DNA of 64,000 nucleotides. Source: a virus. The stretch is from positions 7,495-71,494 of IMG/VR virus record IMGVR_UViG_3300050343_000147. One strand, written 5' to 3'. A program made the translations under genes and the position numbers. Of this stretch, positions 1-51,599 are shown piece by piece. Under the pieces are notes generated by a model. The model saw nothing but the letters and a program-made list of their open reading frames with translations. It ran no database searches and was not told the origin of the DNA. How positions within the stretch are numbered: position 1 is the first letter of the stretch; every line of letters begins with the position of its first letter.

Positions 1-3000
1 ACTGTCTTGCGGTTTAGGATAACCATTATCTTTGTTTATGGCTATAAGCTCATTAGCAAATGTAACTAAGTTTTCATTTGCAGTAACATAGTCTTCTAGT
101 ATTTTTTGATCAGCTTTAGACAAACCTGGTATAGTCATACCTTGTTGTATCCATGTGTAAACCCTAACAGCATTACCTACAGTGTAAGGTTCACCTGTGA
201 TTTTTTTATTTAAATCTTTAGGACTAACACCTAATAGCTTTTTTAAAGCTTTAAAGTCATTGGCTAAAGCAACTCTAGCGTTTGATATATCTATGTTAGC
301 TCTAGCAAATGGATCTAAAAAGTTTTCTTTTATCCAAGCTATAGTTTCATCACCTTTTTTACCTTTACCAGCAAAATATCTAGTTAAACCTACAAAATCT
401 TGAGCAGATGGTGGTATGCCTAGTAAATTAAATTTACCTTTATCTGCGCCTACAGCTCTAGCTTTAGTTTGGCCATATCTTTTTTCTGTGCCAATACCTG
501 TAGCTCTTTCTATTATATCATTAAAATCTTTATTAAGATCTTTTGATTTACTAAATTTAATTCTAGCATTTTGAGCTTCAGTATCTAAACGTTGCATTTC
601 ATTAAGAACGTTTTGATTACTACTTGTTTTAGAAAATTTTGTTTGTATTTTAGACGGTAAAGAATTTATGTTTTTAGCTTTAGCTGCTTGAACTTCTTTA
701 TAAGCTTGTGGTGCAAAAGCTCCTAAAACTTTTGTTTTATAATTTCCATTATTTTGTTTTTCATAAACAGTCATTGAAAAAGGAAATCTACCAAAAGTAA
801 AAGAATTATAATATCTTGAACCTACTAAAGGACTAGAATCTTTATATCTTTCGTTTATAACATCATCCATTTGTTTAGGTATAATAGAAACAGTATAGCT
901 ATCAAAACCTTTTTTTAATTCTTCTAAAGTCATTTGACCATTAACATACTTAGCCATATTAACTAACATTGTTCTAGCTGGTGGATTATGTTCGTATCTG
1001 TAATCTTTTTTGTTTTTAGAGTTTGACTTTGCAAAGCTATCAACTCTAGCGGCTGCTCTAACTAAAGCTGTCATATCGCCATTTGATGCCGCAAAAAACA
1101 TAGCTAAATCATTAACAGTTATTTCGCTTTCTTTATTTAACCCTTTATAAAAATCTAATATATCAATTATAGCATCTTGATTTTTCTTTGCATAATTAGC
1201 AGAATCGTCTAACATGTTTTTTGAAATACCTCCGGTTTTATTTAAAGACGTAACATAAGTGTCTACTTTTTGAGCAACTTTAGTTTTTAACAACGGTTTA
1301 CTGTTATATTGAGGAGCGTTTCCTTTGTAAGTAAGTAATTCAGGTTTTTTTAAAAAAGGTTTAATTAAAACTTCACTCATTTCTTTTTGATTACCAAAAA
1401 TACTAGTTCTTAAACTATCACTTCTTTCTAATGTACTTGGAACTAAATGTAACAAATCTGTTTCTTTGTTCAATTCCCACATAAAATTATTTCCTCCAAC
1501 CTTTGCACCAGCACTGAGAGTAGGACCTAAAATATTTACAACATAATCAGCTATTTTTAAATCATCACCTTTAAATTCTTGCATTTTAGAACCAACAAGT
1601 TCATTCATAAAGTTGACATAACCCATTATTTGTTTATCATCTCTAAAATTTACACCACCTTTAGCTACACCTAATATATTTCTTACAACTTCTGTTTCTG
1701 TTTGCTCTTCAAAAGCCTGTATTAAATAATCGTTTATATTTATTTTTTTTGGTTTTCCAGTTTTAAAATCTTTTTGATTTTTAATAATACTTTTTCTAAC
1801 TTTTTTCCATTCACTTATTATTTCTTCTCTTTTTCTACTAGGTGTTCCATCGCTTTTGTTTAGAAAATTTCCAAAAACACTTTGAAAAGCAGCATCAACA
1901 TTATAGTTATCAATTGCAATTGAACTTATAAATTCAGGCAATAAGCCTCTGTATACAGTTTGATCTTCTGGTTTTAAACTTCTTAAACTTTTGTTTAAAT
2001 TTTGATTATTACTAGCGGTTTTGCTAAACTTTAAATCAATAGGTCTTTTAATTGCTTTCGAAACTTTTTCAGTGGTTTGTGTTTTATCTACAAACTCTCT
2101 TTTCTCTGTAATTTCTGGTTTCTGTATAGTTTCCATTGTAGCATCAAAAGCAAACTCTTCTGCTAATGCTTCAGCTAATGCATCTTTTCTAGTACCTTTA
2201 GTTGATGTACCAACATCTCTACCTAAAAAGTAATTAATAAATTCAGCTTTAGTAATATCTTTTTTCTTAAATATTTTTTTACCTTCTTTAGTTTTTTCTC
2301 TTTTACCAGTGTCTTCTGCAAACGGTCTAAATCTTTTATTTATAATTTCTTGAGGTATAGCTTCATAAATATTTTCAAAGTTATCTCTTAAAAAAGTTTC
2401 GTAAGCAGCTCTTGACCCTAAAACATCTTTAGCTATAGTAGTTTTAAGTTCTGTTCTAAAACCTTTTTGTAAAGCTTTTTTAAACTGTGGTGAATCTACA
2501 GGTGGTAGTTTAGTGCCAAAAGTTTTTGTAACAGCATCAATTACTTTTTGTGTGGTAGCTTTATCTAGTTTAATTTTCTTCCTTAAACTTTCTTTTGCTT
2601 TTGTAGGTTTTTCCGCAACACGCTCTGTAACCTCTTCAGTGGTTGTATCTGTAACTCCTTTAGCCTCTGTGACATCTAGTTTAAACTCAGTGTCTAAAAC
2701 TCTATTAGAAGCTTCTATAGCTCTTGCTGGTAAAAACTTATTTATATAAGCAGCTAACGGGACACCTTTGCTAGCATCGTATTCATTTATTAAATCTATA
2801 ATACCACGCTTACCAGTTTCTATTTCGTCGGTTAATAGTTGTCTATCAAAACCAGGCGCTTCACTTCTTCTTTGTACAATTCTATTTGTAATAGGTTTAA
2901 ACTTCTCTATTATTTCAAACGCACCTTCTTTACCTTTTTGTTCAAATATAGTTTGAACAGCATCAGACTCAGATTTAGATTCTTTTATAATATTTTCAAC

Positions 3001-5424
3001 ATCTTGCTCCTGTTGCTTAGGTATAACTAATTCACCTTTAACACCTTTAGCAGCTGCTTTTACTTGACCTAAGTTTAATGTACCTTTTTCTACACTATTG
3101 CTATAATCTTTTATAAAATTATATACATCTCTACCATTATTAAATTTAACGTTTAATCCAAAGCGTTGCAATACTCTTCTTACACTATCACCAATCCTTG
3201 TAAAAATATTTTCTTCAAACTTAATATCACCACTGGCTAAAGCATCTGAAAATAGGGTTAAGGCTTCTTCCATTTGAACTTCTTCAGATTTGTCAGCATA
3301 TTGCTCCATTCGTTTTTTAAAGTTACTATCTTTAATTTGAGCAGAATCTATTTTGTTTAGTTCTTTTAAAAGTTCATTACCTAAATTAATTGCGGTTTCA
3401 GGATTGTCTTTAACTGTTTTATATAATATAGCATGGCCTATTTCGTGAGTACCAACATTAAAAGCTTTTTCTTTACTAGCAATATCTCTATTTATAACAA
3501 TAGTTTGCTCGCCTGTGTTAGGATTTTGAACTATAAAACCTTGATCTGTAGAAGACTTAATATTTAAATCTTTTTCATTTTTTAAAAAATCATCAATTTC
3601 TTTTTTATTAGCAAAATCTCTTACATCAACACCACTAATAAATTTAGAAGCTTGTTTAGCTTTAGTTATATTGTTTACTAATTTTTCTCCTTCAGATCTT
3701 ATTTCATATATTTCTTGACTAGCGTTGTTTCTAGCTTTTTCTATATTATTTATAAGAATATTTTTAGTATCAGAATCTAATTCTGTTGAAGATTTAATCT
3801 TGTTAATTTTACTACCTGATTCTGTTAAAAAATCAGAATTTTTACTTATAATATTTAATTGTTTTTCATTAAGAGAAGAAACTATATTATCATTACTATC
3901 AAATTGGTTTTTTAAATCTTGTTTTATTTGAGCTTGAACAGTGTTAATAGTTTTTATTTGTTCTTCTGATATATTTTTTTTAAATTTAGAATTTTCTAAA
4001 TCATTTAATTGTTTTATAGAATTTTTAATTTTTTGTTGCTCTTCACTTGTTCTTATTGCTCTTCCAGCTCTTAAAGCTTTTCCGCCAACAGCAAGTCCAA
4101 CACCTCCAAACATACCCTTAAGCGCTTGATCTAAGGCATCTGGTGACGTCATAGAATTACCAGCTTCTAAACTTGCTTTTTTTAAGCTCATTCCTTTTGC
4201 TAAATTAGTGTTTAGTTCACCGGTACCGTATTGAAACCACTCTTGAAGAAAGTTTTTACCACCAACATTTATTAAAGAAAATAATTCTTTTCTAGAACTA
4301 GTAGGCATAGAATTTATCCATTTACCTATATTTCCAATTTGTGCTTTTTCAGAAACATATTCTACAATACCTAAAAAACCAGGAACAATAACTTCTGCTT
4401 TACCAGAATTAACAAGTTCTTCACTTGTAACACCAAGTTCATTTGCCTTTGTTTCGTTGTAGTTTTTTATGGAGCCAGAGGTTATAGTTGTAAAAAGACC
4501 AACCGGCGTTGATGCAACTGAAGTTACTATAGATGCAACCCCATCTAACGCAGCGGCAATACCACCTGAAAAATAATTATCTTTATTTAAATTAGGAAAA
4601 GATTGTGTAGGTAGATTTTGACTCTGCAATTTATCTATTCTAGATTTAGCCCTACCCATGCCCTCTATACTTTCTTTATAAAGTTTTTCAGCTGCTTCTA
4701 CTCCATATATATTAGCTGTTAAATCAAAGCCTTGAGTGCCCATAAAATGATACATGTAACTAAATTGATCATCTAAACCTGATAATTGCCTCATATTATT
4801 AGTTAATGTCCCATACATATCCTCTAAAAAAGGTAAGTCAATTTTACCACTAGAAACGTCTTGCATTTTTTTCTGTCTTCTGTCTCTAGCTTCTTTTTCA
4901 ACTTTAGATATTCTTTGTGATTCTTCAAATGGAGTTATAGATGTTAATTCTCCTTGAGCTTGTTTTTGTTTTTTTATATCTTCTTCTGTTAATTCTGGTA
5001 AATTAGCAGCTGCCATCATTATATTTCTAGCTGCATCGTTTTGTTCTTGTTGAATTTTTTCGTTATATTGTTTAGCCGTTACTTCAACTTCTTCTAATCC
5101 AACTGGGATAAATTGACCGTCACTAACCCCTCTTAATTTAATTTCACCTTCATCTGTAAAACCAGATCCAGCACCAATGAAATATCTGTTTCTTTTGTTT
5201 TTAGGATCTGTAGAAACCGAAGAACCAGGATCCAATGTGGATGCCGTATTTGGTTCTGGTGTTACAGACGCATCCGTCTCCGCAACACCGTTTGTCTTTA
5301 CTGAATTATCTTCATCTGTTTCAATACCAACTTTAACAATATAATCATCTAAACTAAGGTTTGAATCTTCCGCAGCTAATTGCACATCTTCTAAAGAATA
5401 TGTTTTGTCTTTAAATTTAAACAT
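1..5424 (-). CDS. Giant (>1808 aa, runs off window) putative internal virion/ejection 'polyvalent' protein with a zincin HEXXH motif and a sigma-70 region-2-like segment
   Basis: ATG at 5424 (MFKFKDKTYSLEDVQ...). Spot-translated segments share one frame: GTHEIGHAILY (~3447) followed by EEALTLFSDA, GIIDLINEYDASKGVPLAAYINKFL (~2800-2735), YRYEHNPPA (~993). It is probably absent from the ORF track because there is no stop inside the window. It follows the tail genes, as ejection proteins do in podoviruses. Confidence 0.75.
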   Translation of the reverse strand, partial: MFKFKDKTYSLEDVQLAAEDSNLSLDDYIVKVGIETDEDNSVKTNGVAETDASVTPEPNTASTLDPGSSVSTDPKNKRNRYFIGAGSGFTDEGEIKLRGVSDGQFIPVGLEEVEVTAKQYNEKIQQEQNDAARNIMMAAANLPELTEEDIKKQKQAQGELTSITPFEESQRISKVEKEARDRRQKKMQDVSSGKIDLPFLEDMYGTLTNNMRQLSGLDDQFSYMYHFMGTQGFDLTANIYGVEAAEKLYKESIEGMGRAKSRIDKLQSQNLPTQSFPNLNKDNYFSGGIAAALDGVASIVTSVASTPVGLFTTITSGSIKNYNETKANELGVTSEELVNSGKAEVIVPGFLGIVEYVSEKAQIGNIGKWINSMPTSSRKELFSLINVGGKNFLQEWFQYGTGELNTNLAKGMSLKKASLEAGNSMTSPDALDQALKGMFGGVGLAVGGKALRAGRAIRTSEEQQKIKNSIKQLNDLENSKFKKNISEEQIKTINTVQAQIKQDLKNQFDSNDNIVSSLNEKQLNIISKNSDFLTESGSKINKIKSSTELDSDTKNILINNIEKARNNASQEIYEIRSEGEKLVNNITKAKQASKFISGVDVRDFANKKEIDDFLKNEKDLNIKSSTDQGFIVQNPNTGEQTIVINRDIASKEKAFNVGTHEIGHAILYKTVKDNPETAINLGNELLKELNKIDSAQIKDSNFKKRMEQYADKSEEVQMEEALTLFSDALASGDIKFEENIFTRIGDSVRRVLQRFGLNVKFNNGRDVYNFIKDYSNSVEKGTLNLGQVKAAAKGVKGELVIPKQQEQDVENIIKESKSESDAVQTIFEQKGKEGAFEIIEKFKPITNRIVQRRSEAPGFDRQLLTDEIETGKRGIIDLINEYDASKGVPLAAYINKFLPARAIEASNRVLDTEFKLDVTEAKGVTDTTTEEVTERVAEKPTKAKESLRKKIKLDKATTQKVIDAVTKTFGTKLPPVDSPQFKKALQKGFRTELKTTIAKDVLGSRAAYETFLRDNFENIYEAIPQEIINKRFRPFAEDTGKREKTKEGKKIFKKKDITKAEFINYFLGRDVGTSTKGTRKDALAEALAEEFAFDATMETIQKPEITEKREFVDKTQTTEKVSKAIKRPIDLKFSKTASNNQNLNKSLRSLKPEDQTVYRGLLPEFISSIAIDNYNVDAAFQSVFGNFLNKSDGTPSRKREEIISEWKKVRKSIIKNQKDFKTGKPKKININDYLIQAFEEQTETEVVRNILGVAKGGVNFRDDKQIMGYVNFMNELVGSKMQEFKGDDLKIADYVVNILGPTLSAGAKVGGNNFMWELNKETDLLHLVPSTLERSDSLRTSIFGNQKEMSEVLIKPFLKKPELLTYKGNAPQYNSKPLLKTKVAQKVDTYVTSLNKTGGISKNMLDDSANYAKKNQDAIIDILDFYKGLNKESEITVNDLAMFFAASNGDMTALVRAAARVDSFAKSNSKNKKDYRYEHNPPARTMLVNMAKYVNGQMTLEELKKGFDSYTVSIIPKQMDDVINERYKDSSPLVGSRYYNSFTFGRFPFSMTVYEKQNNGNYKTKVLGAFAPQAYKEVQAAKAKNINSLPSKIQTKFSKTSSNQNVLNEMQRLDTEAQNARIKFSKSKDLNKDFNDIIERATGIGTEKRYGQTKARAVGADKGKFNLLGIPPSAQDFVGLTRYFAGKGKKGDETIAWIKENFLDPFARANIDISNARVALANDFKALKKLLGVSPKDLNKKITGEPYTVGNAVRVYTWIQQGMTIPGLSKADQKILEDYVTANENLVTFANELIAINKDNGYPKPQDS

Positions 5425-15447: not shown

Positions 15448-16212
15448 TTATTGTAACTTTTTCTTAATTGTTTTAAAAACTTCAACACCTTCATCAGTTT
15501 TAAACCAAGCGGCTAACGCTGAATAAGGGTTTTCATCAAAAGGTATAGTCATTAGTTTTCTATCATTAGATCCCCAATGGAACGTTCTTTGATCTTGAGC
15601 TAATTTTATTATATGTTGCTCAGTAGCTCTTATACCTATATTTCTTAAACCTACGTTCTCATCACTTGCTACAGATAAAAATGCTGATGGATTTCTTCTT
15701 GCCATAAGTAGTAAATCTCTTCTTAGCTCTTTAGAACTTAATGTAGAGACTTTAGACCCTAGTTCAACTCTTAACACAGCTTCAGCGTGATCTATATCCA
15801 TTTCTTTTGCTGCAATCATTGCATCTAGTTCTACATTAATATCTTCAAGTTCATCTTCAGCAACTACCTCAGCTTCCCATTCAGAATATATAATACCTTT
15901 TTTAGGGTGATATAGTGATAATAGTTTTTGTAAGTTTTGTTTTTGTTTTGGAACAGCTAAAACACCATCTTCAAATATAATGTGCCCTAGCGTTACCTCT
16001 CCTTTTTGTTCTTGTAAAAAAGGTGAGTTCTGATTCGTAGCATATCTTAATTCTTTTTGTTCCCCTGTTTTTTCATCAAACCATAGTAATGGATGTCTTC
16101 CAGTGTTTTTAGAATTTAAAGTATATGTTAACGGTTCTTTATCGTGTAATAGAAAATATCTTCTATCTTTAATCTCCCATTTAGGGGCTATTGTTTCTTT
16201 TGTTTTTGACAT
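15448..16212 (-). CDS. Conserved hypothetical protein downstream of the major capsid protein (254 aa)
   Basis: Intact ORF in the head-tail module. Confidence 0.6.
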   Translation of the reverse strand: MSKTKETIAPKWEIKDRRYFLLHDKEPLTYTLNSKNTGRHPLLWFDEKTGEQKELRYATNQNSPFLQEQKGEVTLGHIIFEDGVLAVPKQKQNLQKLLSLYHPKKGIIYSEWEAEVVAEDELEDINVELDAMIAAKEMDIDHAEAVLRVELGSKVSTLSSKELRRDLLLMARRNPSAFLSVASDENVGLRNIGIRATEQHIIKLAQDQRTFHWGSNDRKLMTIPFDENPYSALAAWFKTDEGVEVFKTIKKKLQ

Positions 16213-16232
16213 GATATAATATAATATAATTA

Positions 16233-16271
16233 ATAAAATAAAGGGCTGGGTGCCGAAGCACCCAACTCTTT
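16233..16271 (-). terminator. Rho-independent terminator after the major capsid gene
   Basis: Minus strand reads AAAGAGTTGGGTGC-TTCG-GCACCCAGCCCTTT-ATTTT: a stem with a UUCG tetraloop plus a U-rich tail, just after the MCP stop. Confidence 0.8.
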
Positions 16272-17776: not shown

Positions 17777-18935
17777 TTAGTTAAATTTTCTTGTTTTAAT
17801 CTTCAGTTTTGAAGAATCAAGACCGCTTATAGCTTTAACTTTTAATCCACCAACAAATACGTCTCCGGTAGGCGCTGGCCTAACATCTTCGGATATGTTT
17901 TTAGACTTAGCAACAAGATCTTTAGTAGCATCGGATTTACCTTGCTCATAAAAATGTTGTGCTATTTTGTCAACGTTTTCAGCGGCATACATAGCTTTGT
18001 GATAACCTTTAACATCTTTACATTACCTTTATCATCTAAGAACTTCTTAATTGTGTTTGTAATATTCGATTGTTTAGTTGCAACTTCACTAGGATTTTTA
18101 ACACCGTATCTAAATTTTTTTCACCAACACTGAAATCAAAACCTTTGAAATCATTAGTAAAATAATCTTTAGTATTAGATTTAAAATCCTCATGTTGTTG
18201 TTGAGCTGTGTTTTGCTCTTCATTATAGCGATTGAAAAAGTCCATAGCTTTTTGTTGGTCTTGTGTCGTACCAGGTCTCAACTTGATTTCCTCGTAATAT
18301 TGACTTTTTAAACCATCTAAATGCTTTCGGGCTTTAGCAACCTCTTCTTTATACGCAAGTTTCTTTTTACGAATCTCACGCTCCTCGTCCACTTCTTCAT
18401 CAAATGAAAAATTATCTTCAATCATAAAGTTAATTTCGCTTGAATCTAAGTGTGATTTGGCTTGTTTGTAATACTCTCTTAATAAAGTATCATTATCTAC
18501 ATTAGTATAGTCAGCATTTAATCTAACATAATCTTCTAATGTTCCACCTGTTTCTTTCATAAAGTCTACGACTTTTTCGATGTTTTCAGGTAATTTAGCT
18601 ACCTCTCTTGCCTCTTCAGGTGTAGGAGCAATAACTTTTTCTTCAATCTTTTCACCTAGTTGTACTATTTCTTCTTCAACAACTTCTTCAATAGGTTTTA
18701 CTTCTTCTTCTTTAATTTCAGAAACTGGGCTGGGCTCTGGTACTTGTTCGTCCACTTTAGGGCTATCTCCGGTTTGTTCTTCCACAACCACCTTCTTTGT
18801 TTCTCCGACTTGAATGGCATCTGTTTCTTCTGTTTTAGGTTTTGATAAATCGACTTTAATAATATCGTCTTTTACCAATTGTTTAGGCTTCTTTTTTATT
18901 TTAAAAGAGCCTTCTTCTTTTACTTGTTCTGACAT
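17777..18935 (-). CDS. Capsid scaffolding protein (frameshift near 18115)
   Basis: Glu-rich acidic N-terminus and coiled coil, between portal and MCP. The 299-aa and 71-aa fragments join. Confidence 0.65.
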
Positions 18936-18964
18936 AATATAATATAATAAAAATTAATAAAAGT

Positions 18965-28797: not shown

Positions 28798-30317
28798 TAA
28801 TTCTAAGATTATTAATTACACAATCGGTTGATAAAATAGTTGTGCTACAGAAGCTGCATTTTTTAATGCACTTTTTGTGACAAGTAAAGGATCAATAATC
28901 CCTGACTCAATCATATTTACCATATTTCCTGTAACCACATCTATTCCTTCTCCTTCTGTTAAAGATGCTTTGTATTGTCTATACCTGCATTGCTTAAAAT
29001 AGTCTTAAAAGGCGCCTTAATAGCTCTATAAAACTTTTTCATAACTATTAGAAGTTTTATATTTGTGCAGCATTTAACAAGCTATACCACCTCCTGGAAC
29101 AATACCTTCTTTAATAGCAGCTTTAGTTGCACATATTGCATCTTCAACTCTATCTTTTTTTCTTGTAATTCAACTTCTGAATTAGCACCTACTTTTACAA
29201 TAGCAACTTTACCAGATAACCTAGCTAATCTTTTTTCATTTTTAACTTAATAGCAGGATTTTGCTGTTTTAATTTATCTTTTAAATCTTTTATTAAATCT
29301 TTAACTTCTTCAGTTACTTCATTAACATGTATAATTGTTTCCATTTCACTTAGATACACTTTTTTTAAACATCACCTAAATGTTCTGGTTGTATTAAATC
29401 AATATCATCTCCTAGATCTTCATTTATAATTGTAGCTCCTGTAATAAAGAAAGATCTTCTAATGTTTCTTTTTTATTAATACCATAAACAGGTGCATCAA
29501 TTAATTAACTTTTATATTACCTTTAATTTATTCATAGCTAAAGCAGACAAACTTGTTGGTCTACATCAGCTATAATAATAAAGATCTATTATTTTTAATA
29601 ACATATTCTAAAACACTTTGTATTTTTCTAATATTTTCAACCTGTGATTCAACTAATAAAACTAAAGGTTTATCTAGTTCAGCTGTTTTAGTTTCTTTGT
29701 TTGTTACAAAATGTATATTTTTTAATCCTCTATCGTACTGTATACCATCAATAACTTCAAATTGTTTCTGGTAATTTCTGTTGTTTCCATCATAACAACA
29801 CCATGTTTCACCAACAGATCTAAATGCATCAGCTATAATTTTACCAAGTTCTGGATCGTTGTTAGTAGATATAGTAGCTACTTGATCAATCATATCTCCT
29901 TTACAGGTATAGCTATTGTTTCTAAATATTCAACACTTTATCAGTTGCTGTTTATACCTTTTTTAAATCTCTTGAGTTTTATTTATCTTAACTTTATAAG
30001 CTTCTTCTAAAATAGCATGAGCTAACACTGTAGCAGTTGTTGTACCATCACCAGCTTCTTTAACTGTTTTTCTAGCTGCTTCTTTTAATAATGTTGCTCC
30101 CATATTTTCTACAGGATCTAATAGTGTTATAGCTTCAGCTACTGTTACACCATCTTTTGTAATAATAGGTTTGCCGGTTAGTATCTTCTAACATAACACA
30201 CTTACCACTAGCCCCAAGAGTGGAGCTAACGGCTTGTGTAAGTTTTGTAATACCAGCAAACACATTGTCTTTAGCATCAGAACCAAAGTTCAGATTCTTT
30301 ACAATTGCATTTGACAT
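28781..30317 (-). CDS. groEL: Chaperonin GroEL (multiple apparent indel errors)
   Basis: [47 protein letters not shown] and [15 protein letters not shown] motifs across frames. Confidence 0.9.
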
Positions 30318-30349
30318 AATTTAATTTAATTTGATTTGATTGATTGATA

Positions 30350-31127: not shown

Positions 31128-32944
31128 TTAATTTAATCCTAGAGTATATATTTTTCCCCAAACCACACTTCCATCAGAAATTTTAAATTTCATTATAACA
31201 GCTTTAACTTGTCTATATGAAGTTGCACTAGGGTTTGATCTTCTTGTTTCTGCTGGATTATTGTTTGGTGCATTATATGTAAATTGACCTCCAGCTCCTG
31301 GATCATTTTCTTGATTTTGAGTTGCAACATATATATAATCATCATTCATTTCAATAAACTGCCAAACTCCTGGACCAACATTTGGAGCATTATTAACAAA
31401 AACAGTATACAACGCTATTGCTTTAAACCATTTAACAGAAGTTAGATTTCCAGCTTCAGTATTGTAACATACTAAAAAAGTAAGAGGATTGTACCAATCA
31501 TTTATATCTGGCTGAATAGGTGAAACAGTTGTAATTCCATTACCTATTGTTGTTCCCCCCGCACGCCGCTACGTTTTCATTGTTACTAGCTATACCTTGA
31601 AAACAAGCATTAAAATTTCTATCAGGACCGCTTGATGTCGTGGCTTGCATATACGTATCATAATAAGTTTCAAAATTTAAATCCGTATCAAACTTAACTA
31701 TGTGACCTACACTAAACTTTTGAGGAGCTATAGGATTGCTCAAAGGTATGGGTGGAAAACATGTTCCAGCTGCGTATATTTTTATCTCACTCATATTATT
31801 TTATTTAACGTGAATCAAATGCTCCAAAACAAGTAATATCATTAAATCCAGTTGTATTAGAGTTTGGCATATTTGATCCAGTGCCAGTTCCAACACCACG
31901 GTTTATTTGCCAAACTTTAAATGTTGGTGTAGTAAGAGCAACTGAGGTTCCTGTACTAGTTGTTTTGTCGTATTTCATTTTTGTAATACCACCATTCCAT
32001 TCTCTGTCATTAGCTAAATTTTCGTTTTTAATTTGATTAACAACATATATATTTATTATATCTTCGTCTAAAACAGAAGTATTATCCCATTGATTTATAA
32101 ACTCGTTAGATAAAGACGCTGCTCTAGGTTGAGAATAATGATAACCTTGTTGGTGCGTACTATCATTAATTTGTCTAGTCCAACCAGTATATTGCCAAAG
32201 TTTAGGATATGTATCGCCATTATATGTAGACGTGTTTATAGAAAAGATGCCATATCTTCTTATATCAACAGCACCGTCGTCGCCAGTTGTTGCAAACTCT
32301 TGATCTAACCAAAAAATCTTAGTTTCATCACCTTGTAAATAAATAGCATCAGCCGCTACGTGGTTAATTGAACCAGGATAATCTATAAAGTGACCGTTGT
32401 CAGACATTCCTCTAAAAGAATTAGTAATTGAACTAGTGTAAAAAGATCTTAAATATTGTTGCCAAACAGGATAGTATCTATTGGTGGATGTGGAATAAGA
32501 TCCACCAACTATTATCATATCTTCATCTGAATTTATTGTTAAAATACCACAAGCATTCCATTGACCATTTGATTGAGAAACGCCTGGAGCTAATGGACCT
32601 AATATTACCGATGTGGATAAGGGATCACTATTATTGGGAACTACGTTGCTTCCGCTAGTTGTATATTTTTTACCATTTAATCCAGGTGCATAAGTAGTGT
32701 TTATTATCCACCAAGGGCTTGTTGCAGCAACAAATGTTCTACCATAAAAATCAGAATACTTATAAGAAGGCGTAACATTCATTGGTGGAAATACTGGCGT
32801 TGAATTAGCATACAAACCTACAAACGAAACAGCTGTAGGTGTGGTTCCAACTGTTCCAGCTAAAGGTCCAGTTGTAGATCCAACTCTTGATGCTTCAAGG
32901 TTTATTGCTGTAGCGGATATTGGTCCACTTGTTGGTAATGCCAT
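31128..32944 (-). CDS. Tail-tip/receptor-binding-associated protein (379-aa ORF plus downstream fragments; possibly one gene)
   Basis: MALPTSGPISATAIN...YSDFYG is a typical N-terminus of fibre-associated proteins. The beta-rich continuation is broken at ~31800 and ~31540. Confidence 0.5.
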
Positions 32945-35900
32945 TACTTATTACAATTACAGTTATTTGACTTTAATTCCTCTATTTCAGCTTTTAGTTC
33001 TTTTATAGCTTCTAGTAATATTGGTGTTATACCTTGATGTCTCATTGATAGCATACCGTTATCATTTTCTCTAACAAGTTCTGGTAAAACTTTCTGAACG
33101 TCTTGAGCTATAAATCCTATATCTTCTTTTATATCAAGTATATCTTCTGATTTATTTTTCCAATCAAATGTTACACCTTGTAGTTTACTTACTTTATCTA
33201 AAGCTGATTCAATTGGTTTAATATTTTCTTTTAATCTAATATCTGATGGTGAACCATAAGCTACAATATCTCCAGAAACTGTAAAAGTACCACTTGAATT
33301 TAATTTACCTGTTTGAGCTGGTGTTGATCCTGTTCTTAAACAAACTGCAAAACCAGATATTGTAGGTCCTTCATTTGCTTGATCATAAAAAGTTGCTGTA
33401 CTAGTTGTAGGATTTGAGTGATTAGCTCTAAACCTATATGAATCAGCAACAACATCTCCAGTAACTGTAAAATCTCCAGTGTAAGCACCTGACATAGTTA
33501 ATGTTCCTGAAGTAGTAATAGTACCACCAGATAAACCATTTCCAGTTGCAACACTTGTAACAGTTCCAGTAGTTGGTGGAGCTGTCCATACCAAATTTAT
33601 AGAACCTGAAGCTTTTGATAAATAATAACCCGAGCCTGGCGCTGCTACTTTTGGCATTCTCCAAAATGTATTACCTATAGTTGAAGTTGCTGTTGGACCA
33701 GTTAATTCTAAATTACCATTACCATAAAGTTTTAATGTTGTGTTATCAACCGGTGTGCCTGATGTATTAAATCTATTTATAAAAGCAAAATAAGCATTAT
33801 CGTTTTCAGATTGTGTAGCTCCAGACCCTGTAGCATAATATATTTCATTTTCTCTAGAACCACCTGAATTATTCCACACCATAGCCATACCAGTATCATA
33901 AGTAGTAGGTGGAGCGGTTGATTGTGCATTTCCACTTACATAAAAATAAGCCCCAGCATTAGTGCCATTAACAGTTAAACTACCAGTAAAATTAGTTGCT
34001 ATAGAAGACGAAGCGCCTCTTGCTGTAACTGATTGTAAAGTATCAGTTTCAGTATATGAAGTTAAATATCTACCATCTAAATTAATAGTAGCTCCAACAG
34101 CAGCATTATTACCAGTTATACTTAAATCACCGTTAGAATCATTAAAAGTTCCACCTGTTACAAAATAGTTTGAACCTGCACTTGGTGTTGCCCAAGATCC
34201 ATCACCTCTTAAAAAAGTTGTAGCACTTCCTCCAGTTGGTACATATCCAACATTAGTGGTTCCAGCATAATACTTTGAAGTTAATGTAAGAACTCTACCG
34301 TTTATACCTTGACCTAAAGGAGCACCAGTAGATGCTGCAACAGCTAAAGTAACACTTGTTATTCCAGTATCAGCTACGGTATAATTAGGTATATTTAAAA
34401 CGCCTGCGTTACTAAGTGTTGAAGCTCCTGAAGTTCCTGTAGTTGTTAATGATTGAAAAGTTTCTGTCGCTTCTGAAACTAAAGTTGAACTTGCACCGGC
34501 TGGTAATAACATTGTATTAGTGACACCTGCACTATGAGGTTGTGATTTTAATATTTGACCATGTGTTCCATCATAACACATTAGTTTAATACCACCATCA
34601 ACAGTGCCCGCACCATCAACTTGTAATAAACCAGCAGAAGGTGAAATTTGATCAATTACAGGTGTAGTTAATGTTTTATTGGTTAACGTTTGAGTACCTG
34701 TTAATGTAACCACAGTACTGTCTATAGAAAATTCATCTGTAGCTGACAAGAGTAAACCTGTTCCATTTGTATACGTTGTGTCGTCTGAATCTATTGTTAT
34801 AGCTGTATTTCCAGTTCTAGTAATTGTTGTTCCACCTGAACCTGTTAAAATAACATCATTATTACTTCCAGTTAAAGGATCTAATCTTAAAGCTGGATTA
34901 GTATTTGAACCTCCTGTTGTTACAGCTAAAAAAGAATAAGTAGTATTATTAATATAACTAGGTACTTGCCATTTATTACCTTCAGTTAAAAATTTAGTTG
35001 TAATTGTAGAGGTTCCAGTAGCAGCGGCACTTAAATCGGCTGTAACTGTTATTGATCCTGTACTAGCTGAATTAGGTGTTAAATTAATATAAGTTCCATC
35101 AGTTGTATCCACACTGTTAACCCCAGAAGCTGTTGCTGGTACCCTAGTCCATGACCCACTACTAGATGATCCACTCCAGATAACCGTATCGCCTATACTC
35201 CAGCTGTTTGGTGTTGTATTAGCTCCATTAGGCGTTGCATTACCGGCAACACTACATATGTAAAAATCACCATTACTATAAGGACTAGGTCCAATTGGCG
35301 GAGGTATTAGGTATGGCATACCACCACTACCACTTGAGGCATCCCATGTTCCTTGAAATTGCGAACCTATACTTGACCAGGTTCCATCCCCTCTTAAATA
35401 AGTAGAGTTTGTTCCACCATCAGGCACATAACCAACTAAACTCCCACCTTTATATTTTTTAGATGATAAAGTTAAAGATCTTAAGTTAGAATTAATAACA
35501 GCTGTTAATGGTGTGTTGTTAACCGTTGCATCCGCTACACCAACAGACTCACTAATTATACCTTGCCCAGGCGGTATACTCCAGGTTTCATCACTAGTTA
35601 AATAATATTTATCTGTGTTTGGCCAAGTTGAAGCAGGTGGTGCTGGAACCAACCCTTTTGTACCTATAACTCCAGTAGGTGGATTACCTGTTCCTACAGC
35701 TGCTTCAAAAACAGTATTTGGTGCGGCTGTACTAGCAATTTCTATTTCACCTGCTCCTACTCTAGTTACTGTTATAAGATCCCCTCCTGAAATTTGTATA
35801 GAATCATCAGTTGTAGAGCTAGCATCAAGTGTTATTAACGGGTCATTATTATCACCTTGAGATGATTGGTCTACGTCTAAAGTATATCTTGGGACATTCG

Positions 35901-38718
35901 GTATGTTTAAAACCCCTGCAGCACTCAGTGTAGCTACGCTCATATAAGGTGAAGTTGGAATAGCAGTTGTTGTTAAGCTTTCAACAACACCGTCACCAGT
36001 TCCAGCACCGATTTGTGTTCTAACCATAGTCGCTGTAACATTACCAGCAAAAGACAAACTTGGAATGGCTGCACCATCAGATATAACGGCTGGTATACCT
36101 GTATCAGGTGAATCATTTGTTATTGTTATTGTGTTATTTGATGCGCTAGATATAGATATATCGGAACCATCTACAAAAGTAATAGTTCCAGCAGCTGCAC
36201 CAGTACTTGTATCGTTCAATGTTATTATCTTTGCAGCACTTGTTAAAGTATATGTATTGTTGTCTCCAGTTGAATCAACTCGCCAAGCTGGATTACCATT
36301 AGTATCTGTTTTCCAAACTAAATTAGCATCAGTAGCGGCGGGAGCGGCTACATAACCAGCCACTGTAACAGCATTAGCAACCCAAGTGTTTGTTGCGTTT
36401 ATAGTTAATAAATCATCTGCTCTTGTAAAAGTAACATTTGAACCTTGTTTAAACACCATCGTATCTTGAGCCGTAGAATCTGCCGATAAAACTAAATTAT
36501 ATTCTCCAGCTGTAACACTTGCTGTACCTGCTAAATCATACAACGTATTATCATTAGCAGCAGCTATAGTTAAAGAATTTGCCGCTCTTGTAAATGTAAT
36601 ATTGGAACCTTTTGTAAACACCATCGTGTCTTGAGCTGTTCCATCGGCTGATAAAACTAAATTATAATTAGCAGCAGTAGTACCATCTGCAGCTCCAGCT
36701 AAAGCATATAGTGTGTCATCATTATCATTAGGTGATGTCAATGTCATTACAAAATTACCATCACTATTAGGATCTGTTAATACAGTTGATAAAGCGCCTG
36801 TTGCTCCAACAAATTGAACTGTTTTACCACTAGCAACATCACCAGTGCTAGGAGTTCCTTGATTATCTTTTATTTCCCAATCATATGATGTATCTGTCCA
36901 AGGCACATTAACAACTAGGTTTTCGCTTTGATCGTCTAGTTGAATCTTATATGTTTGATTAGCTGTTGTTGAAAGACTTTCTGGCACAGCTGAAGCAGTT
37001 GAATCTACATTAACATCAAACTCTAGTGTATTTAACGTTAAACCTATCCCCGCTGTATATGTTGTATTTGTTGCGGCTATATCTATTGTGCTCGCGTCTG
37101 TTCTTGATAATGTAACATTATTTCCACCCGTTAATACAATAGCATCGTCTGTACCATCACTACCTTTTAAATTTATACTTGTTGTGGCTGAAGGTACGTC
37201 GACAGTATAAGTTGTGTTGTTATCTGTTGTATAAGCGGGTACCGCCCAAGTGTTGTTTTTTGTTAAGAATCTTTGTGATGTGCCAGTGTTGTTTCCATCA
37301 GCAGCACTTAGATCAGCTGTAACAGTCACAGCACCAGTTGTAGCTGTATTAGGCGTTAAATCAATAAAAGTACCGTCAGTTGTTGTTAAACTGGTTACAC
37401 CTGAATTTGTAGCAGGTACTCTAGTCCAAGCAGTTCCATCATAAACACACCAATCTCCTAAAGCCCAAGTACTAGGTTCGTTAGTTCCTCCGTTTGGATA
37501 AGCAGTTCCCGCGACATCACATATCCATAAAAACCCTGCACCTTTGTTAGCTGCTAAAGTTAAATCTGGACTTCCACCGCTACCACCTGAAGCATCCCAA
37601 GTTCCTTTAAATATTAAACCTGTAGGTATTGCTTCCCAAGTACCATCACCTTTTAAGTAAGTAGATGATGTTCCACCTTCAGGTACATAACCTACATTAG
37701 CACCACCAATATATTTAGCTGATGTTAGAGTTAACTCTCTGTTAGCTATACTCTCAACTAAAGGTGCACCTGCTGAATCTGCTGTAGCCAAAGTAACACC
37801 AGTTATACCAGTATCTGTACCAGTTAAAGTTATTGTGTTTCCTGTTTGTGCAGCTGTAACACTACCATCGCCTAATATTAAAACAGTTCCACCACTATCG
37901 CTTAACAATACACCAGAATCAGTGTTGTCTGTTCCAGTACCTGCTATTGTTTGTATCGTATCGCTCCAAGGAACTGTAACCAACATTTTTTCACTAGCTA
38001 ATGTAACTGGATAATCTCTAGTTGATGTTTGTGTATAACCTATTTGTACACCACCTCTTATACCATCTGCCGCTAGAGGCAATGTATATATTGTGTCTGT
38101 CCAAGGGACATTTACATAAGCTCTTTCATTATCTAATTCTAATGGATAGTTTTTACCAGCCTCTGTGTAGCCTATTTTTACACCACCTAATGCTACAGTT
38201 GTTGCAACTGGTAAAACATATTGAGTTGGTATTGTTGGAAAAGTAACTAAGTTACCTAAACCATTTATGTATTGAGCAGCTGTCCCCGCGCCTGTAACCG
38301 TTAGTATACCAGCTTGAGTTATAGGTGAGTTAGTGACTGTAAATGCTGCTGGCATTGATAAACCAACGCTAGTTACACCTTGAGCAGCAACATTAACCCA
38401 TTGCGTTCCTGTAGCTGTAGAACTAAGTAATTGCCCTGCTGTTCCTGGTTGGTTACTTGAATCGTAATAACCACCTGAAACTTTTAAACTATTAGAAATA
38501 ATAATAGAATTAGTTGTTGTATTACCTATATTAGTAACCTGTTGTAAATTTTGCGCTGCACCTTGACTAGCGATTAAATCAAGTAAAGATCCTACGGTAA
38601 AACTAACAGTTGGATTACCATGCACTGGGTTTACAGCATCCTCGTCATAAGTTATAGTACCTATAAGTAAATCATCTCTCTTTGGTGTGTTTAAAGGGTA
38701 TGAATATATTATCGCCAT
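32944..38718 (-). CDS. Long tail fibre (1924 aa) with C-terminal Peptidase_S74 intramolecular chaperone
   Basis: Thr/Gly-rich repeats (YLKGDGTW x3, GTWDAS x2) and C-terminal SDIRLKENIKPI...GFIAQDVQKVLPELV...LLEAIKELKAEIEEL. Confidence 0.85.
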   Translation of the reverse strand: MAIIYSYPLNTPKRDDLLIGTITYDEDAVNPVHGNPTVSFTVGSLLDLIASQGAAQNLQQVTNIGNTTTNSIIISNSLKVSGGYYDSSNQPGTAGQLLSSTATGTQWVNVAAQGVTSVGLSMPAAFTVTNSPITQAGILTVTGAGTAAQYINGLGNLVTFPTIPTQYVLPVATTVALGGVKIGYTEAGKNYPLELDNERAYVNVPWTDTIYTLPLAADGIRGGVQIGYTQTSTRDYPVTLASEKMLVTVPWSDTIQTIAGTGTDNTDSGVLLSDSGGTVLILGDGSVTAAQTGNTITLTGTDTGITGVTLATADSAGAPLVESIANRELTLTSAKYIGGANVGYVPEGGTSSTYLKGDGTWEAIPTGLIFKGTWDASGGSGGSPDLTLAANKGAGFLWICDVAGTAYPNGGTNEPSTWALGDWCVYDGTAWTRVPATNSGVTSLTTTDGTFIDLTPNTATTGAVTVTADLSAADGNNTGTSQRFLTKNNTWAVPAYTTDNNTTYTVDVPSATTSINLKGSDGTDDAIVLTGGNNVTLSRTDASTIDIAATNTTYTAGIGLTLNTLEFDVNVDSTASAVPESLSTTANQTYKIQLDDQSENLVVNVPWTDTSYDWEIKDNQGTPSTGDVASGKTVQFVGATGALSTVLTDPNSDGNFVMTLTSPNDNDDTLYALAGAADGTTAANYNLVLSADGTAQDTMVFTKGSNITFTRAANSLTIAAANDNTLYDLAGTASVTAGEYNLVLSADSTAQDTMVFKQGSNVTFTRADDLLTINATNTWVANAVTVAGYVAAPAATDANLVWKTDTNGNPAWRVDSTGDNNTYTLTSAAKIITLNDTSTGAAAGTITFVDGSDISISSASNNTITITNDSPDTGIPAVISDGAAIPSLSFAGNVTATMVRTQIGAGTGDGVVESLTTTAIPTSPYMSVATLSAAGVLNIPNVPRYTLDVDQSSQGDNNDPLITLDASSTTDDSIQISGGDLITVTRVGAGEIEIASTAAPNTVFEAAVGTGNPPTGVIGTKGLVPAPPASTWPNTDKYYLTSDETWSIPPGQGIISESVGVADATVNNTPLTAVINSNLRSLTLSSKKYKGGSLVGYVPDGGTNSTYLRGDGTWSSIGSQFQGTWDASSGSGGMPYLIPPPIGPSPYSNGDFYICSVAGNATPNGANTTPNSWSIGDTVIWSGSSSSGSWTRVPATASGVNSVDTTDGTYINLTPNSASTGSITVTADLSAAATGTSTITTKFLTEGNKWQVPSYINNTTYSFLAVTTGGSNTNPALRLDPLTGSNNDVILTGSGGTTITRTGNTAITIDSDDTTYTNGTGLLLSATDEFSIDSTVVTLTGTQTLTNKTLTTPVIDQISPSAGLLQVDGAGTVDGGIKLMCYDGTHGQILKSQPHSAGVTNTMLLPAGASSTLVSEATETFQSLTTTGTSGASTLSNAGVLNIPNYTVADTGITSVTLAVAASTGAPLGQGINGRVLTLTSKYYAGTTNVGYVPTGGSATTFLRGDGSWATPSAGSNYFVTGGTFNDSNGDLSITGNNAAVGATINLDGRYLTSYTETDTLQSVTARGASSSIATNFTGSLTVNGTNAGAYFYVSGNAQSTAPPTTYDTGMAMVWNNSGGSRENEIYYATGSGATQSENDNAYFAFINRFNTSGTPVDNTTLKLYGNGNLELTGPTATSTIGNTFWRMPKVAAPGSGYYLSKASGSINLVWTAPPTTGTVTSVATGNGLSGGTITTSGTLTMSGAYTGDFTVTGDVVADSYRFRANHSNPTTSTATFYDQANEGPTISGFAVCLRTGSTPAQTGKLNSSGTFTVSGDIVAYGSPSDIRLKENIKPIESALDKVSKLQGVTFDWKNKSEDILDIKEDIGFIAQDVQKVLPELVRENDNGMLSMRHQGITPILLEAIKELKAEIEELKSNNCNCNK

Positions 38719-38721
38719 TTA

Positions 38722-41088
38722 TTATTTATTTTTTAATATTTCTATTTCAGCTTTTAGTTCTTGTATTGCTTTAACTAATAAAGTAACTATTTTAGAGTAA
38801 TCAACACCTTGCATTTCTTCTGCATCTTTTTCTCCCACAACTGCATCTGGTAATACTTCTTGTAATTCATGAGCCATAACTCCATAACTTCTGCTTTCAT
38901 TTGTTTTCCATTTAAAGTCATAAACAGGTATTTTAGAAACCATATCTAAACCTGCAAAGTCTTGTAAATCTTCTTTTAACCTATAATCAGAAGATGTGCT
39001 ATAGGTAGTTGAAGAAGTTGTAAGATTTATTGAACCAACTGCTGTACTTCCATTTGCAAACCTTACAGCTTGATTACTTCCTGAAGCAGTTTTTATGCCT
39101 AAATTTTGACTAGTAGCGTCAATAACTAATTTATGTCCACCAACACCACCAACAGTAGTACTTTCAGTTCCTATTCCGACGTTTCCTTTAATATAGGTTT
39201 TACCATCTGCTTGTATCGTAAAAACGTCGCCGCTTGCAGCATATCCTCCCGAATATAAATCTGTGACTACAAACTTACCTTGCGATCCAGTATATGTAAC
39301 ACCAATTCTTCCCACTGTATTAGTTGCTGTTATACTGTCAGTAAAGTTAATAGCTGCCAAACCCCCTATGTTTCCACTCCATCCACCGTTAAAAGATAAT
39401 TGTAAAAAATCAAAATCTGTTCCCCCGGATAACATGCTTTTAATAACCTTAACATTTCCATCATTAACAGTTAGTTTAGCTGTAGGATTAGTCGTCCCAA
39501 TCCCGACTTTTCCGGGAATACTAACATAAGTAGCCGCCCTGTCTCCAAACATAACTAATGATCCAGCGGCATTGTTATTGTGGCCCCACATTCCCCATTG
39601 ACCATTGCCAATTTGTGTTAATCCAGTCCAAGTATTTCCGCTTGATCCAACAATAGAAGTGCCACCTCCTCTATAACCTAATGACATGCCATATTTATCC
39701 ATAGCAGCTGTGCTTGAATTATGCTCTGTGAAAAATATTCTACTTGAACCTTCGCCACTACTATCAGTATTTCCTTCAATAGATATAAATCTACCAGATG
39801 TGTTTGTGCCATTTCCTGGTAAACCAAAAGTTTGGTTACCCATTATAGTTAGCTTAGCTGATGCAGCAGGTGAAGCCGTTCCGATCCCGACGTTTTCTGA
39901 ACTATCTAATGTTATTCCTCTGTTAGTTATTCCTGAACCACCACCATTTTGTATTTGTAATTTATTTGTTGCATTATCTAAAATAATCTGTGCATAGTTA
40001 TCATCATCTGCATCTCCTAATGCAAGAAACGATAAACCATTAGTAGTGTTAGATTTTATGTTTATTGCAGTTGATGTAGTACCATCTATAGTAAGTTTTC
40101 TTGAGGGCGAAACCGTTCCAATTCCTAATCCAGTTGAGTTCCATCTACCTAAGGTTCCACCACTTCGTTTAAAATCAATATAATTCGTACAGTCTAGTGT
40201 TAAAGGATAGCCTGTGTCAATATGAAAACCGGTTGATGCACGGGTGTCATAATCAATCCCTATTTTATTATAAACTGTATCATCACTATTAAACGTCCAG
40301 TTTATAAATCCACTTGTGCCAGTTGCTCCAGATTTTATCCACATACTAGCGTTTGACGCATCAAGTTGTAAATCACCAACAACTTCTAATTTTTTATATG
40401 GCGAAGCCGTTCCGATTCCTACGTTTCCTGAACTATTTACAACTAAAGCATTGCTATTAAAGTTTGTTACTGCAACTTTAAATACATCTGCGGAATCATC
40501 ATAACCTACTCTAAATGTTCTTGATGGATTTTTAAAATCTATAAATGAATCTGCTTCTGAAGTATTCTCTAATTGAATTGCTGCAACAGAATCACTTTCA
40601 ACGTGTAAAATTCTTTCAGGCGAAGTCGTCCCGATACCTAAATTACAATCATTGAAATAACTAGTACCAGATCTTACATCTAAAACAGCAGTACCTGTAT
40701 TGGCACCATAAGAACCATATGCAAATCTAGCTATTGCTGCATCACCAAAAACCCCCAAAGAGTTTTGACAATACAAAGGGTAAGATCCATTACTATTATT
40801 TCTAGTTAATAAATTATAACTAGAATTTGTTGATCCTGTTCTAAAACCACCACTACTATAAATTATACCTGAAAAAGTTGCACTAGTTCCAGATAAAGGT
40901 CCAGTTAATGTTCCACCTGTTAAAGGTAAATATGGTCCACCAATAACAGTTGAAGCTGCTACCCAAGTTGGGGCTGCATTACCATTTGATCTTAATATCT
41001 GCCCAGAAGTTCCATGAGTATTACTAAAAAGTATAGCCCCAGTGGAATGGACGTCAAATAATCCGTTTATATTAGATAATGATGCCAT
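38722..41088 (-). CDS. Tail fibre (788 aa) with GNVGIGT repeats and an S74 chaperone
   Basis: Six xGIGT junctions and SDYRLKEDL...GVMAHELQEVLPDAV...VDYSK. Confidence 0.85.
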   Translation of the reverse strand: MASLSNINGLFDVHSTGAILFSNTHGTSGQILRSNGNAAPTWVAASTVIGGPYLPLTGGTLTGPLSGTSATFSGIIYSSGGFRTGSTNSSYNLLTRNNSNGSYPLYCQNSLGVFGDAAIARFAYGSYGANTGTAVLDVRSGTSYFNDCNLGIGTTSPERILHVESDSVAAIQLENTSEADSFIDFKNPSRTFRVGYDDSADVFKVAVTNFNSNALVVNSSGNVGIGTASPYKKLEVVGDLQLDASNASMWIKSGATGTSGFINWTFNSDDTVYNKIGIDYDTRASTGFHIDTGYPLTLDCTNYIDFKRSGGTLGRWNSTGLGIGTVSPSRKLTIDGTTSTAINIKSNTTNGLSFLALGDADDDNYAQIILDNATNKLQIQNGGGSGITNRGITLDSSENVGIGTASPAASAKLTIMGNQTFGLPGNGTNTSGRFISIEGNTDSSGEGSSRIFFTEHNSSTAAMDKYGMSLGYRGGGTSIVGSSGNTWTGLTQIGNGQWGMWGHNNNAAGSLVMFGDRAATYVSIPGKVGIGTTNPTAKLTVNDGNVKVIKSMLSGGTDFDFLQLSFNGGWSGNIGGLAAINFTDSITATNTVGRIGVTYTGSQGKFVVTDLYSGGYAASGDVFTIQADGKTYIKGNVGIGTESTTVGGVGGHKLVIDATSQNLGIKTASGSNQAVRFANGSTAVGSINLTTSSTTYSTSSDYRLKEDLQDFAGLDMVSKIPVYDFKWKTNESRSYGVMAHELQEVLPDAVVGEKDAEEMQGVDYSKIVTLLVKAIQELKAEIEILKNK

Positions 41089-46076: not shown

Positions 46077-46354
46077 TTTCCTCCATCTTTAACTGTCAAA
46101 CCAACACCACTGTCATCAAATAAATTTATATTTTTATTATTTGAAGCCTGTATTGTAAATTGATTACCACCACCACCAACGTCTCCGTATTTAATATTAT
46201 CTCTATAAACTTGATAAGAAGTAAAACTTGCGCCATTATCAATTCTAATTGAACCACCTACTTCCAGTTTTTCATTTGGACCTGTGCTATTAATACCCAC
46301 ATTACCTCCAGTTGTTACTAGGAACTTATTATTTATATTAGATAAATTAGCCAT
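43790..46354 (-). CDS. Tail fibre (854 aa) with GNVGIGT repeats and an S74 chaperone
   Basis: Seven GNVGI repeats and SDYRLKENV...GFLAHEVQEIVPEAI...IDQSKLVP. Confidence 0.85.
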   Translation of the reverse strand: MANLSNINNKFLVTTGGNVGINSTGPNEKLEVGGSIRIDNGASFTSYQVYRDNIKYGDVGGGGNQFTIQASNNKNINLFDDSGVGLTVKDGGNVGIGTDSPSFKLDVSGDGIRSIRSTAGWAGWFENTGDSSGVVVTAGRTSGHAPLLIRKEDGTELFSVRGNGTSYFNNGNVGIGTNGPQALLDVEKNNSVIYNPADDLGQRSGTATIHITNQTATINTFGQLMYDSRTSGQGIARIVFLDSGPASVDMAFVTEHGDVKSEKMRIASDGNVGIGTNDPQSKLEVATSDNINDISDGAIQVVSSSPIAFVAPSNLNPSLNRWGFTLREGGEGHFGIRDYRHSSTRVTIDDGGNVGIGTDSPSATEPIGGNLPIGWTRAGSKALEIAAPDFASTGLFLRNSDTTATGTDITGDHYYGDTYIDNRFNNDNGSIYFRTKTAVSPQIRMAIKGSGNVGIGTQGPPSKLTVMESTLCTNSGTDGGTSYVPTKPILLVTTDGNGTPSGYYATNSVFTVGIGGGITGNVTTEHLRVNLNGNVGIGTDSPSEKLTIPGNYGVGLGYKTFYSSGGTVPAGIGPSNYLVATLNQLQGTTLTSKHQYKFFLTTTGTGTYNSSVYIVYANSNNTAWVVREVSRRGTTSNHPELTVSGTEARIYNDHPSSYGVLYRVETTNSNQANTAPEIFGSDYMWQRTAGRLSYTDGEVVISGASYSDGANNISLNQGLVKIGSATTTGTVSMYFTNPNGVVGSVVTDGSNTQFNTSSDYRLKENVVEITGALDRVSQLKPSRFNFIADADKTVDGFLAHEVQEIVPEAITGIKDGVDEKGNPEYQGIDQSKLVPLLVAAIQELKAEIELLKSK

Positions 46355-50554: not shown

Positions 50555-50645
50555 AGTTTTTTTTATTTATATTCTGTCTACGCTGTAAACATGTGAATTT
50601 ATGTGATTTCTCTAACGGACTTTTGGTAAAGCGCGCTATGATAGA

Positions 50646-50654
50646 TAATATCAC
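50646..50654 (-). promoter_or_regulatory. Candidate late promoter GTGATATTA heading the structural arm
   Basis: Similar motifs occur in intergenic gaps at 9215-9223(-), 15436-15444(-), 30721-30729(-), 59039-59047(+) and 60910-60918(+). Confidence 0.4.
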
Positions 50655-50701
50655 AGGTTTTTAACAAGGTTTACTAGTAGTATATAGAGAGTATTTGAAT
50701 A

Positions 50702-50748
50702 GTGTGACAATAGCCTGTTACTATACTACCTTAATAGCCTTATGTCAC
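50702..50748. repeat. Dyad site, copy 1 (half-sites GTGACAWWAGS)
   Basis: GTGTGACAATAGCCTGTTACTAT...GCCTTATGTCAC matches the reverse complement of 57580-57625 at 20 of the first 23 nt and 9 of the last 11 nt. Confidence 0.75.
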
Positions 50749-50948
50749 TGTTTTCATTCTGAAAAAGTGTTGGTTATATAGAATTATGGTGTTACCCCTA
50801 TCCCTCTGGTTATCAACGTGTTACACAAAACGGTTTTCAAATGACGGCCCGGCCCCACTTTTTTTCACAATTGTGTAAATGTTTTACCTTTTTTGTTCAA
50901 TATCGTGTACATGTTTACATATTCACTACAACTACTAACTATTTACTA

Positions 50949-50981
50949 TTACAAACTAAATACGAGTCTACTTGGATAATA
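50949..50981 (+). promoter_or_regulatory. Early repeat motif, copy 1 (putative phage early promoter)
   Basis: TTACAAACTAAATACGA-gtctactt-GGATAATA. Confidence 0.7.
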
Positions 50982-51063
50982 TAGATGTAAGTAATTAATT
51001 AATACTAGTTACTTCACAAGAATGAGTGTGGGAGTAAGATAATTAACACTATAAAAATATACT

Positions 51064-51189
51064 ATGAATAAATTAATACAAGAATTAAAAATAAAGTTTC
51101 CATACAATGAAACAATGTGTAAAGATAAGTACAATGAGACTATACTAGATTATCTATATGAAGAAATTGTAGTAGAACTTACAAACTAA
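51064..51189 (+). CDS. Small early protein (41 aa)
   Basis: MNKLIQELKIKFPY...ELTN*. The stop lies inside motif copy 2. Confidence 0.5.
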   Translation: MNKLIQELKIKFPYNETMCKDKYNETILDYLYEEIVVELTN

Positions 51190-51583: not shown

Positions 51584-51599
51584 ATCTTAAAAATAATAT

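Follow-up and report, generated by a model that had tools for sequence, protein, structure and literature searches.

The giant open reading frame (ORF) at the left end of a 64,000-nucleotide stretch of viral DNA (referred to here as the window; bases 7495–71494 of the 71,494-bp record IMGVR_UViG_3300050343_000147) encodes a giant polyvalent protein in which, according to structure modelling, one segment is a true sigma region 2-type domain. The ORF lies on the minus strand at 1–5424, with the first 1808 of its 2301 amino acids (aa) inside the window and the C-terminal 493 aa to the left of it in the same record, and the sigma-2-like module occupies residues 817–912 (2689–2976, minus strand). 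This spans the peptide (residues 835–905; 2710–2922, minus strand) in which the initial annotation had seen a sigma-70 region 2-like segment, and that similarity was borne out by profile, structure-model, Foldseek and ESM Atlas searches. Transcription of the first genes determines whether a phage infection begins, and our best overall explanation, which we hold tentatively, is that the giant protein is ejected and that its module docks on the host RNA polymerase. The initial annotation had gone further in proposing a virion-delivered factor that redirects the host polymerase to a non-host-like early motif before any phage gene is expressed, and taken as a whole this interpretation is partly supported.

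An alignment of 54 members (A2, to which 53 non-redundant relatives from viral contigs had been added, picked from 79 tblastn hits among 80 loci) was made, and residues 809–949 were modelled. The model consists of five helices with a predicted local distance difference test score (pLDDT) of 84–89 over model residues 11–100, followed by a disordered tail, and has the helical organisation from regions 1.2 to 2.4 by which the sigma-2 fold is recognised. When the model was compared with the PDB using Foldseek, as the initial annotation had suggested, sigma factors or RNA polymerase–sigma complexes dominated the matches listed (48/49; E 0.33–1.9, probability up to 0.96), with SigE-NTD aligned over 75 columns at a template modelling (TM) score of 0.67 and a root-mean-square deviation of 2.8. 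Sigma70_r2 clusters likewise accounted for 26 of the 30 matches found by ESM Atlas features (score 0.96). A generic helical bundle might be drawn towards the very large sigma family by structure and language-model tools with no common descent involved, but we consider such a chance resemblance very unlikely, as four methods agree on the one family and on the register across regions 1.2–2.4, sigma matches are lacking for another helical domain of the protein, confidently modelled and used as a control, and shuffled proteins score 0.95 in the atlas only about once in 100 (according to the tool's own note).

Sequence comparisons, though almost blank in ordinary family searches, point in the same direction. 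The window's own protein has weak NCBIfam matches to SigK (E 0.026) and FliA (E 0.086), and over the 54 members of A2 sigma families make up 16 of the 25 families listed (SigI matched by 18 members, SigK by 14 and 9, FliA/WhiG by 6 and SigB/F/G by 5). Searches of PDB sequences with family profiles returned sigma factors as three of six matches in one case and four of eleven in another (E 0.04–2), and where these matches are shown per residue the register agrees at regions 2.1–2.3. Hidden Markov model alignments to SigK and SigE retain an Asp, two Gly residues, the hydrophobic pattern, the aromatic residue preceding the loop and a single Tyr, with differences at the other positions. It should be noted that the Pfam Sigma70_r2 family (PF04542) matches none of the 54 family members at E ≤ 10, the gathering score of 24 bits not being reached, nor does it match the whole giant protein or the segment.

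The module belongs to a large protein family. A search with residues 760–1060 recovered 1262 relatives (clusters at 90% identity, E ≤ 0.001), which are found in giant proteins of 1.3–3 thousand aa and which reduce to 409 clusters at 50% identity. The family is so far from metagenomes only, many of them marine, and given its size we are therefore dealing with a common uncultured phage group. Among 50,697 cultured-phage records, tblastn found zero matches for the whole giant protein, for its 300-aa core, or for the 252-aa sigma factor of the phage described below; PHROGs had nothing at E ≤ 0.01 for the first 1808 aa or the C-terminal 702 aa, and Pfam had no family for the giant protein over its whole length. 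In Maribacter phage Panino, the giant ORF at the syntenic position is not similar (best E 1.2), and short homologs which might have been free-standing cassette genes appear to be fragments of longer proteins.

The architecture of the giant protein is well conserved, and the order zincin, sigma-like module, domain D2, variable region, C1 and C2 is seen with zero violations in 203 long homologs. The core modules are each present in 155–200 of these (190–200 in the comparison with the cargo regions), while the N-terminal part is found in 46 and the central part in 12, and Pfam kinase or Zeta-toxin domains in two homologs add to this picture of the shared scaffold with variable cargo that characterises polyvalent proteins. 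In homologs such as P0102 and P0122, Zeta-toxin/AAA_33-type kinase domains (PF06414, PF07931 and PF13671) are in the variable middle region, and a HAD-like DxDxT segment noticed by eye in printed sequences suggests exchangeable cargo. Median identity to the window's protein is highest for the module, at 65.9% compared with 39–60% for other parts (119 proteins, in a set biased by the way it was retrieved).

Upstream of the module there is a zincin-like metallopeptidase region (residues 641–790; 3055–3504, minus strand) with the motif HEIGH at residues 660–664 (3433–3447) and a downstream invariant Glu. The zincin positions H46, E47, H50 and E106 are invariant in 31/31 aligned sequences, and the region has weak matches to Peptidase_M78/IrrE (E 0.33 and 0.79). 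In 204 of 220 homologs an HExxH motif precedes the sigma-like module by no more than 350 aa, at a median distance of 151 aa, and the 2301-aa protein shares with polyvalent proteins this combination of large multidomain size and a zincin-like HExxH, the peptidase being assigned from sequence. Directly after the module comes DVTEA (residues 917–921; 2662–2676, minus strand) in a linker predicted to be disordered (pLDDT < 50 at model residues 111–130); D109, V110, T111 and A113 are invariant across 54 sequences and E112 is at least 90% conserved, and DVTEA may be a short linear motif or processing site. Domain D2 follows (residues 940–1105; 2110–2607, minus strand), conserved, with a confidently predicted fold, and without a known relative. 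No sigma factor is among the 10 PDB profile matches, 50 VIA rows and 50 Foldseek rows for D2, neither region 3 nor region 4 was found beside the module, and a search of the rest of the 2301 aa with Pfam only gave no region 4 match.

The module and D2 appear to be set off by repeated junction motifs of the form KFSK[ST], which occur at 0.86 per protein compared with 0.010 in shuffles. Just upstream of the module is the variant KESKS (residues 814–818; 2971–2985, minus strand), where relatives have KFSKS or KLSKS, and KFSKT at residues 1132–1136 (2017–2031, minus strand) closes what we infer to be a cassette of about 310 aa. Two further copies (residues 1596–1600 and 1623–1627; 625–639 and 544–558, respectively, within 544–639, minus strand) precede the conserved C-terminal region. 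Among the homologs, the motif is seen after D2 in 56/156 under a strict definition and 89 under a loose one, and before C1 in 79/200 and 102, respectively, which makes these sites candidates for cleavage sites or linkers. The C-terminus of the giant protein (L002 6016–6100, minus strand) is a strongly basic tail of about 35 residues, rich in Lys, Arg and Ser, whose character is shared among homologs.

The gene is the final one of a long minus-strand block of late structural genes, which includes several proteins with matches to PHROGs that carry a virion structural annotation, and the placement of the segment by the initial annotation within a giant protein is borne out, with this protein encoded at the close of the virion gene block. 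A capsid protein encoded in the same block has relatives in Flavobacterium, Cellulophaga and Maribacter phages (85 records, all < 60% identity), and the virus is a marine relative of Flavobacteriia podophages; the common uncultured group represented by this family has a capsid protein resembling that of Flavobacteriia phages. We note that the same block also has four consecutive large genes at 32944–46354 (1924, 788, 900 and 854 aa), each ending in a Peptidase_S74 intramolecular chaperone domain and one of them also having an endosialidase-like piece; from their domains, these appear to be a set of tail fibre or spike genes. The plus-strand block begins at 50.9 kb with small ORFs, followed by genes for a ligase, DNA-binding protein, Erf, exonuclease, primase/helicase, thymidylate synthase and ribonucleotide reductase.

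These observations can be arranged as a mechanism of three steps, the first of which is the sigma-2 fold itself, located in one of the most conserved parts of a protein of conserved architecture. In the second, the giant protein would be packaged and then ejected with the DNA in the manner of other giant podophage core proteins, and we think this probable on the basis of gene position and architecture; cleavage at the KFSK[ST] junctions may then yield the sigma-like and D2 cassette of about 310 aa. In the third, the module would dock on the beta-prime clamp helices of the host core RNA polymerase, which is the usual activity of sigma-2 domains, and by this analogy such docking is a realistic prospect, if not quite the probable outcome. 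It would bring the polymerase to the entering DNA or exclude the host sigma factor, in either case before phage gene expression. A complex prediction combining the module with residues 200–400 of Flavobacterium johnsoniae RpoC (score 0.20, mark 0.32) gave no verdict and is counted neither way.

A sigma-2 fold might also have been re-used without any involvement of RNA polymerase, for instance to hold single-stranded DNA or DNA ends while the genome is packaged or ejected, or to help build or assemble the internal core, in which case conservation of the module would reflect contacts with other phage parts. The replacement in the alignments of key sigma70 core-binding and –10 residues is in keeping with such a role (with module positions mapped to E. 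coli sigma70 residue numbers), as are the marginal sequence-level similarity to real sigma factors, the lack of a region 4 with the module in the searches of D2, and the constant flanking of the module by the same phage partners, with the zincin upstream and DVTEA and D2 downstream. However, among the structures matched here the fold is found in sigma factors, and the module shows stronger conservation than the phage-specific parts around it, which is more easily explained by a near-invariant host target. We regard re-use as rather less likely than docking on the host polymerase, though it deserves to be taken seriously.

The question of promoter selection by the module concerns the early region, where the non-host-like motif reported by the initial annotation at 50.9–55.3 kb proved to be real. 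The motif TTACAAAC-N17-GGATAATA occurs in seven copies on the plus strand at 50949–55334, though we only infer its tie to the module; in the form ACAAACTAAAYACGA-N8-GGATAATA, 7 copies are found at 50951–55334 against 0 expected, and a scan of the window for TTACAAAC-N17-GGATAATA recovered the same 7 plus one weak match at 18030. The copies are confined to the opening 4.4 kb of the plus-strand genes, and an ATG is found 5–8 bases past the motif in 5/7 of them, a spacing which suggests that the early mRNAs are leaderless or near-leaderless. The 16-mer of the motif is present in at least 119 viral-contig stretches. The Bacteroidota housekeeping promoter consensus was not enriched (3 matches compared with 3.94 expected, and none in the early block).

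All of the motif copies are upstream of a conventional sigma-70-family gene on the plus strand at 58249–59009, a rival candidate for reading the early motif which the initial annotation, seeing no RNA polymerase motif in the window, overlooked. The gene is present as two overlapping frames (58249–58527, 92 aa, and 58521–59009, 162 aa) which together make up the sigma protein and are separated by a shift of one base in an A-rich stretch, and contains the sole match (58360–58491) in a genome-wide scan with Pfam Sigma70_r2. The split may stem from an assembly error, or the shift may be genuine and perhaps programmed, and the related record G001 is split at a similar place. Close relatives are intact at 252 aa (7657 matches), with some named sigma-70 family by JGI, and score slightly too low to reach the Pfam thresholds for region 2 and region 4; as these intact relatives have both regions, the phage has a complete sigma factor of its own. 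The giant protein's module is not a recent copy of it (hhalign probability 0.4%, E 0.15). Regarding other polymerase genes, a regular expression found no DFDxD-type polymerase motif in ORFs of at least 150 aa, and a scan for T7-like polymerase (PF00940) gave no match, but control genomes were equally silent.

According to the initial annotation, the module would be an injected promoter-specificity factor, steering the host core to TTACAAAC-N17-GGATAATA ahead of any phage protein. The number and early confinement of the motif copies upstream of the phage sigma gene, the ATG that closely follows most of them, the resemblance of GATAAT to a –10 element, and T4 gp55, a precedent for a sigma factor of little beyond a sigma-2 domain, are all consistent with this, and as the relatives examined also have the motif cluster ahead of the gene for the 252-aa sigma, and host-type promoters are not enriched, the idea stays alive. 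Yet a bipartite motif whose two conserved boxes are always 17 bases apart suits a sigma factor having regions 2 and 4 at least as well as a lone sigma-2 domain, which argues for the phage's 252-aa protein, in which both are present, or for a host factor; the giant protein is without region 4 in the searches run, and the sigma70 residues that read the –10 element are not retained in the module. Promoter selection is a further and weaker step than docking, and we judge it unlikely, as we do the injected factor itself. The fullest version of a virion-delivered minimal sigma, where the cassette is cut by the protein's own zincin and loads the host core on TTACAAAC-N17-GGATAATA, with start sites at or beside the ATG and D2 replacing region 4, is improbable to the same degree.

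Comparison with 10 related records, every one of which had been selected for carrying the giant protein, does not settle the choice between the two sigma candidates. The strict motif is found in 7/10, and two near-complete records (L225 and L226) have a variant keeping only TTACAAAC-N17-GGATAATA, in which AAAATAATA-like sequence takes the place of the middle of the motif, TAAATACGA, the two forms being of a TACGA and a TAATA type. Nine records in all have the motif in strict or variant form and nine have the 252-aa sigma, and the co-occurrence of domain and motif which the initial annotation had offered as a check is non-discriminating. Seawater RNA-library runs contain the early region as assembled contigs only, in which DNA is possibly present and from which starts, strand and level are unreadable, and we do not treat the uncovered bins at 50587–50960 in these runs as evidence.

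Two other non-coding elements were noticed in the window. A stretch of about 400 bases (50555–50950) divides the divergent late and early blocks and appears by eye to be richer in G+C than its surroundings; the word GTGACAATAGCC recurs in the relatives L225 and L226, and the stretch may be an origin, genome end or control region. An AT-rich element, reading roughly TTATATTATATTATATCATG on the minus strand, is repeated at 16200–16238, 18923–18961 and 30305–30336 directly upstream of three minus-strand gene starts, and may be a late promoter or translation-start context.

Phages are known to start transcription from host-like promoters, with a polymerase brought in the virion, or by modifying the host polymerase through packaged enzymes. 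If docking is correct, a sigma-type polymerase-binding domain in a virion protein would be a further and cheap way in, where the phage brings only the adaptor, and if the virion-delivered minimal sigma were also true, infection would have a third kind of start beside host-type promoters and virion RNA polymerases. Searches of open-access papers and bioRxiv (without supplements) yielded no published account of a sigma domain as part of a virion protein or polyvalent protein, and the catalogue of polyvalent proteins gains a domain type. The abstract of Iyer et al. 2017 (PMC5512222) proposes zincin-peptidase processing and a jump-start of transcription for such proteins, and ours is similar in being a giant multidomain protein with a zincin HExxH and variable cargo, encoded with virion genes, for which a role in delivery with the DNA, against host defence and in favour of rapid transcription, is proposed there. 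In contrast, the word sigma (or the Greek letter) appears 0 times in the main text of that paper, and none of its Pfam LPD-type families matches here.

Among the closest known kinds are sigma factors that phages encode as free proteins. T4 gp55 is a small, free, sigma-2-only late factor which is made post-infection and needs gp33 and the sliding clamp, whereas the present domain sits deep inside a late-gene product of 2301 aa. The module has sigma-70 family region 2 in common with phiEco32 gp36, SPO1 gp28 and the phage's own 252-aa protein, which redirect the host core polymerase, but these free factors are 200–300 aa in length, include region 4 and are made post-infection, and the E-value of the module against the phage's own sigma is only 0.15. 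Virion RNA polymerases such as N4 gp50 and crAss-like phi14:2 gp66 follow the same logic, as they are also giant and encoded among virion genes, and are ejected to carry out early transcription with no new protein required; a zincin peptidase fusion is reported for N4-like virion RNA polymerases by Iyer et al. (PMC5512222). Virion RNA polymerases are complete enzymes, whereas only a polymerase-binding-type domain was found here. T4 Alt, one of several packaged modifiers of the host polymerase, is described in the same paper as a protein carried in the virion which acts on the host RNA polymerase at once. Alt is an ADP-ribosyltransferase, while the sigma-2-like module is a candidate binding domain.
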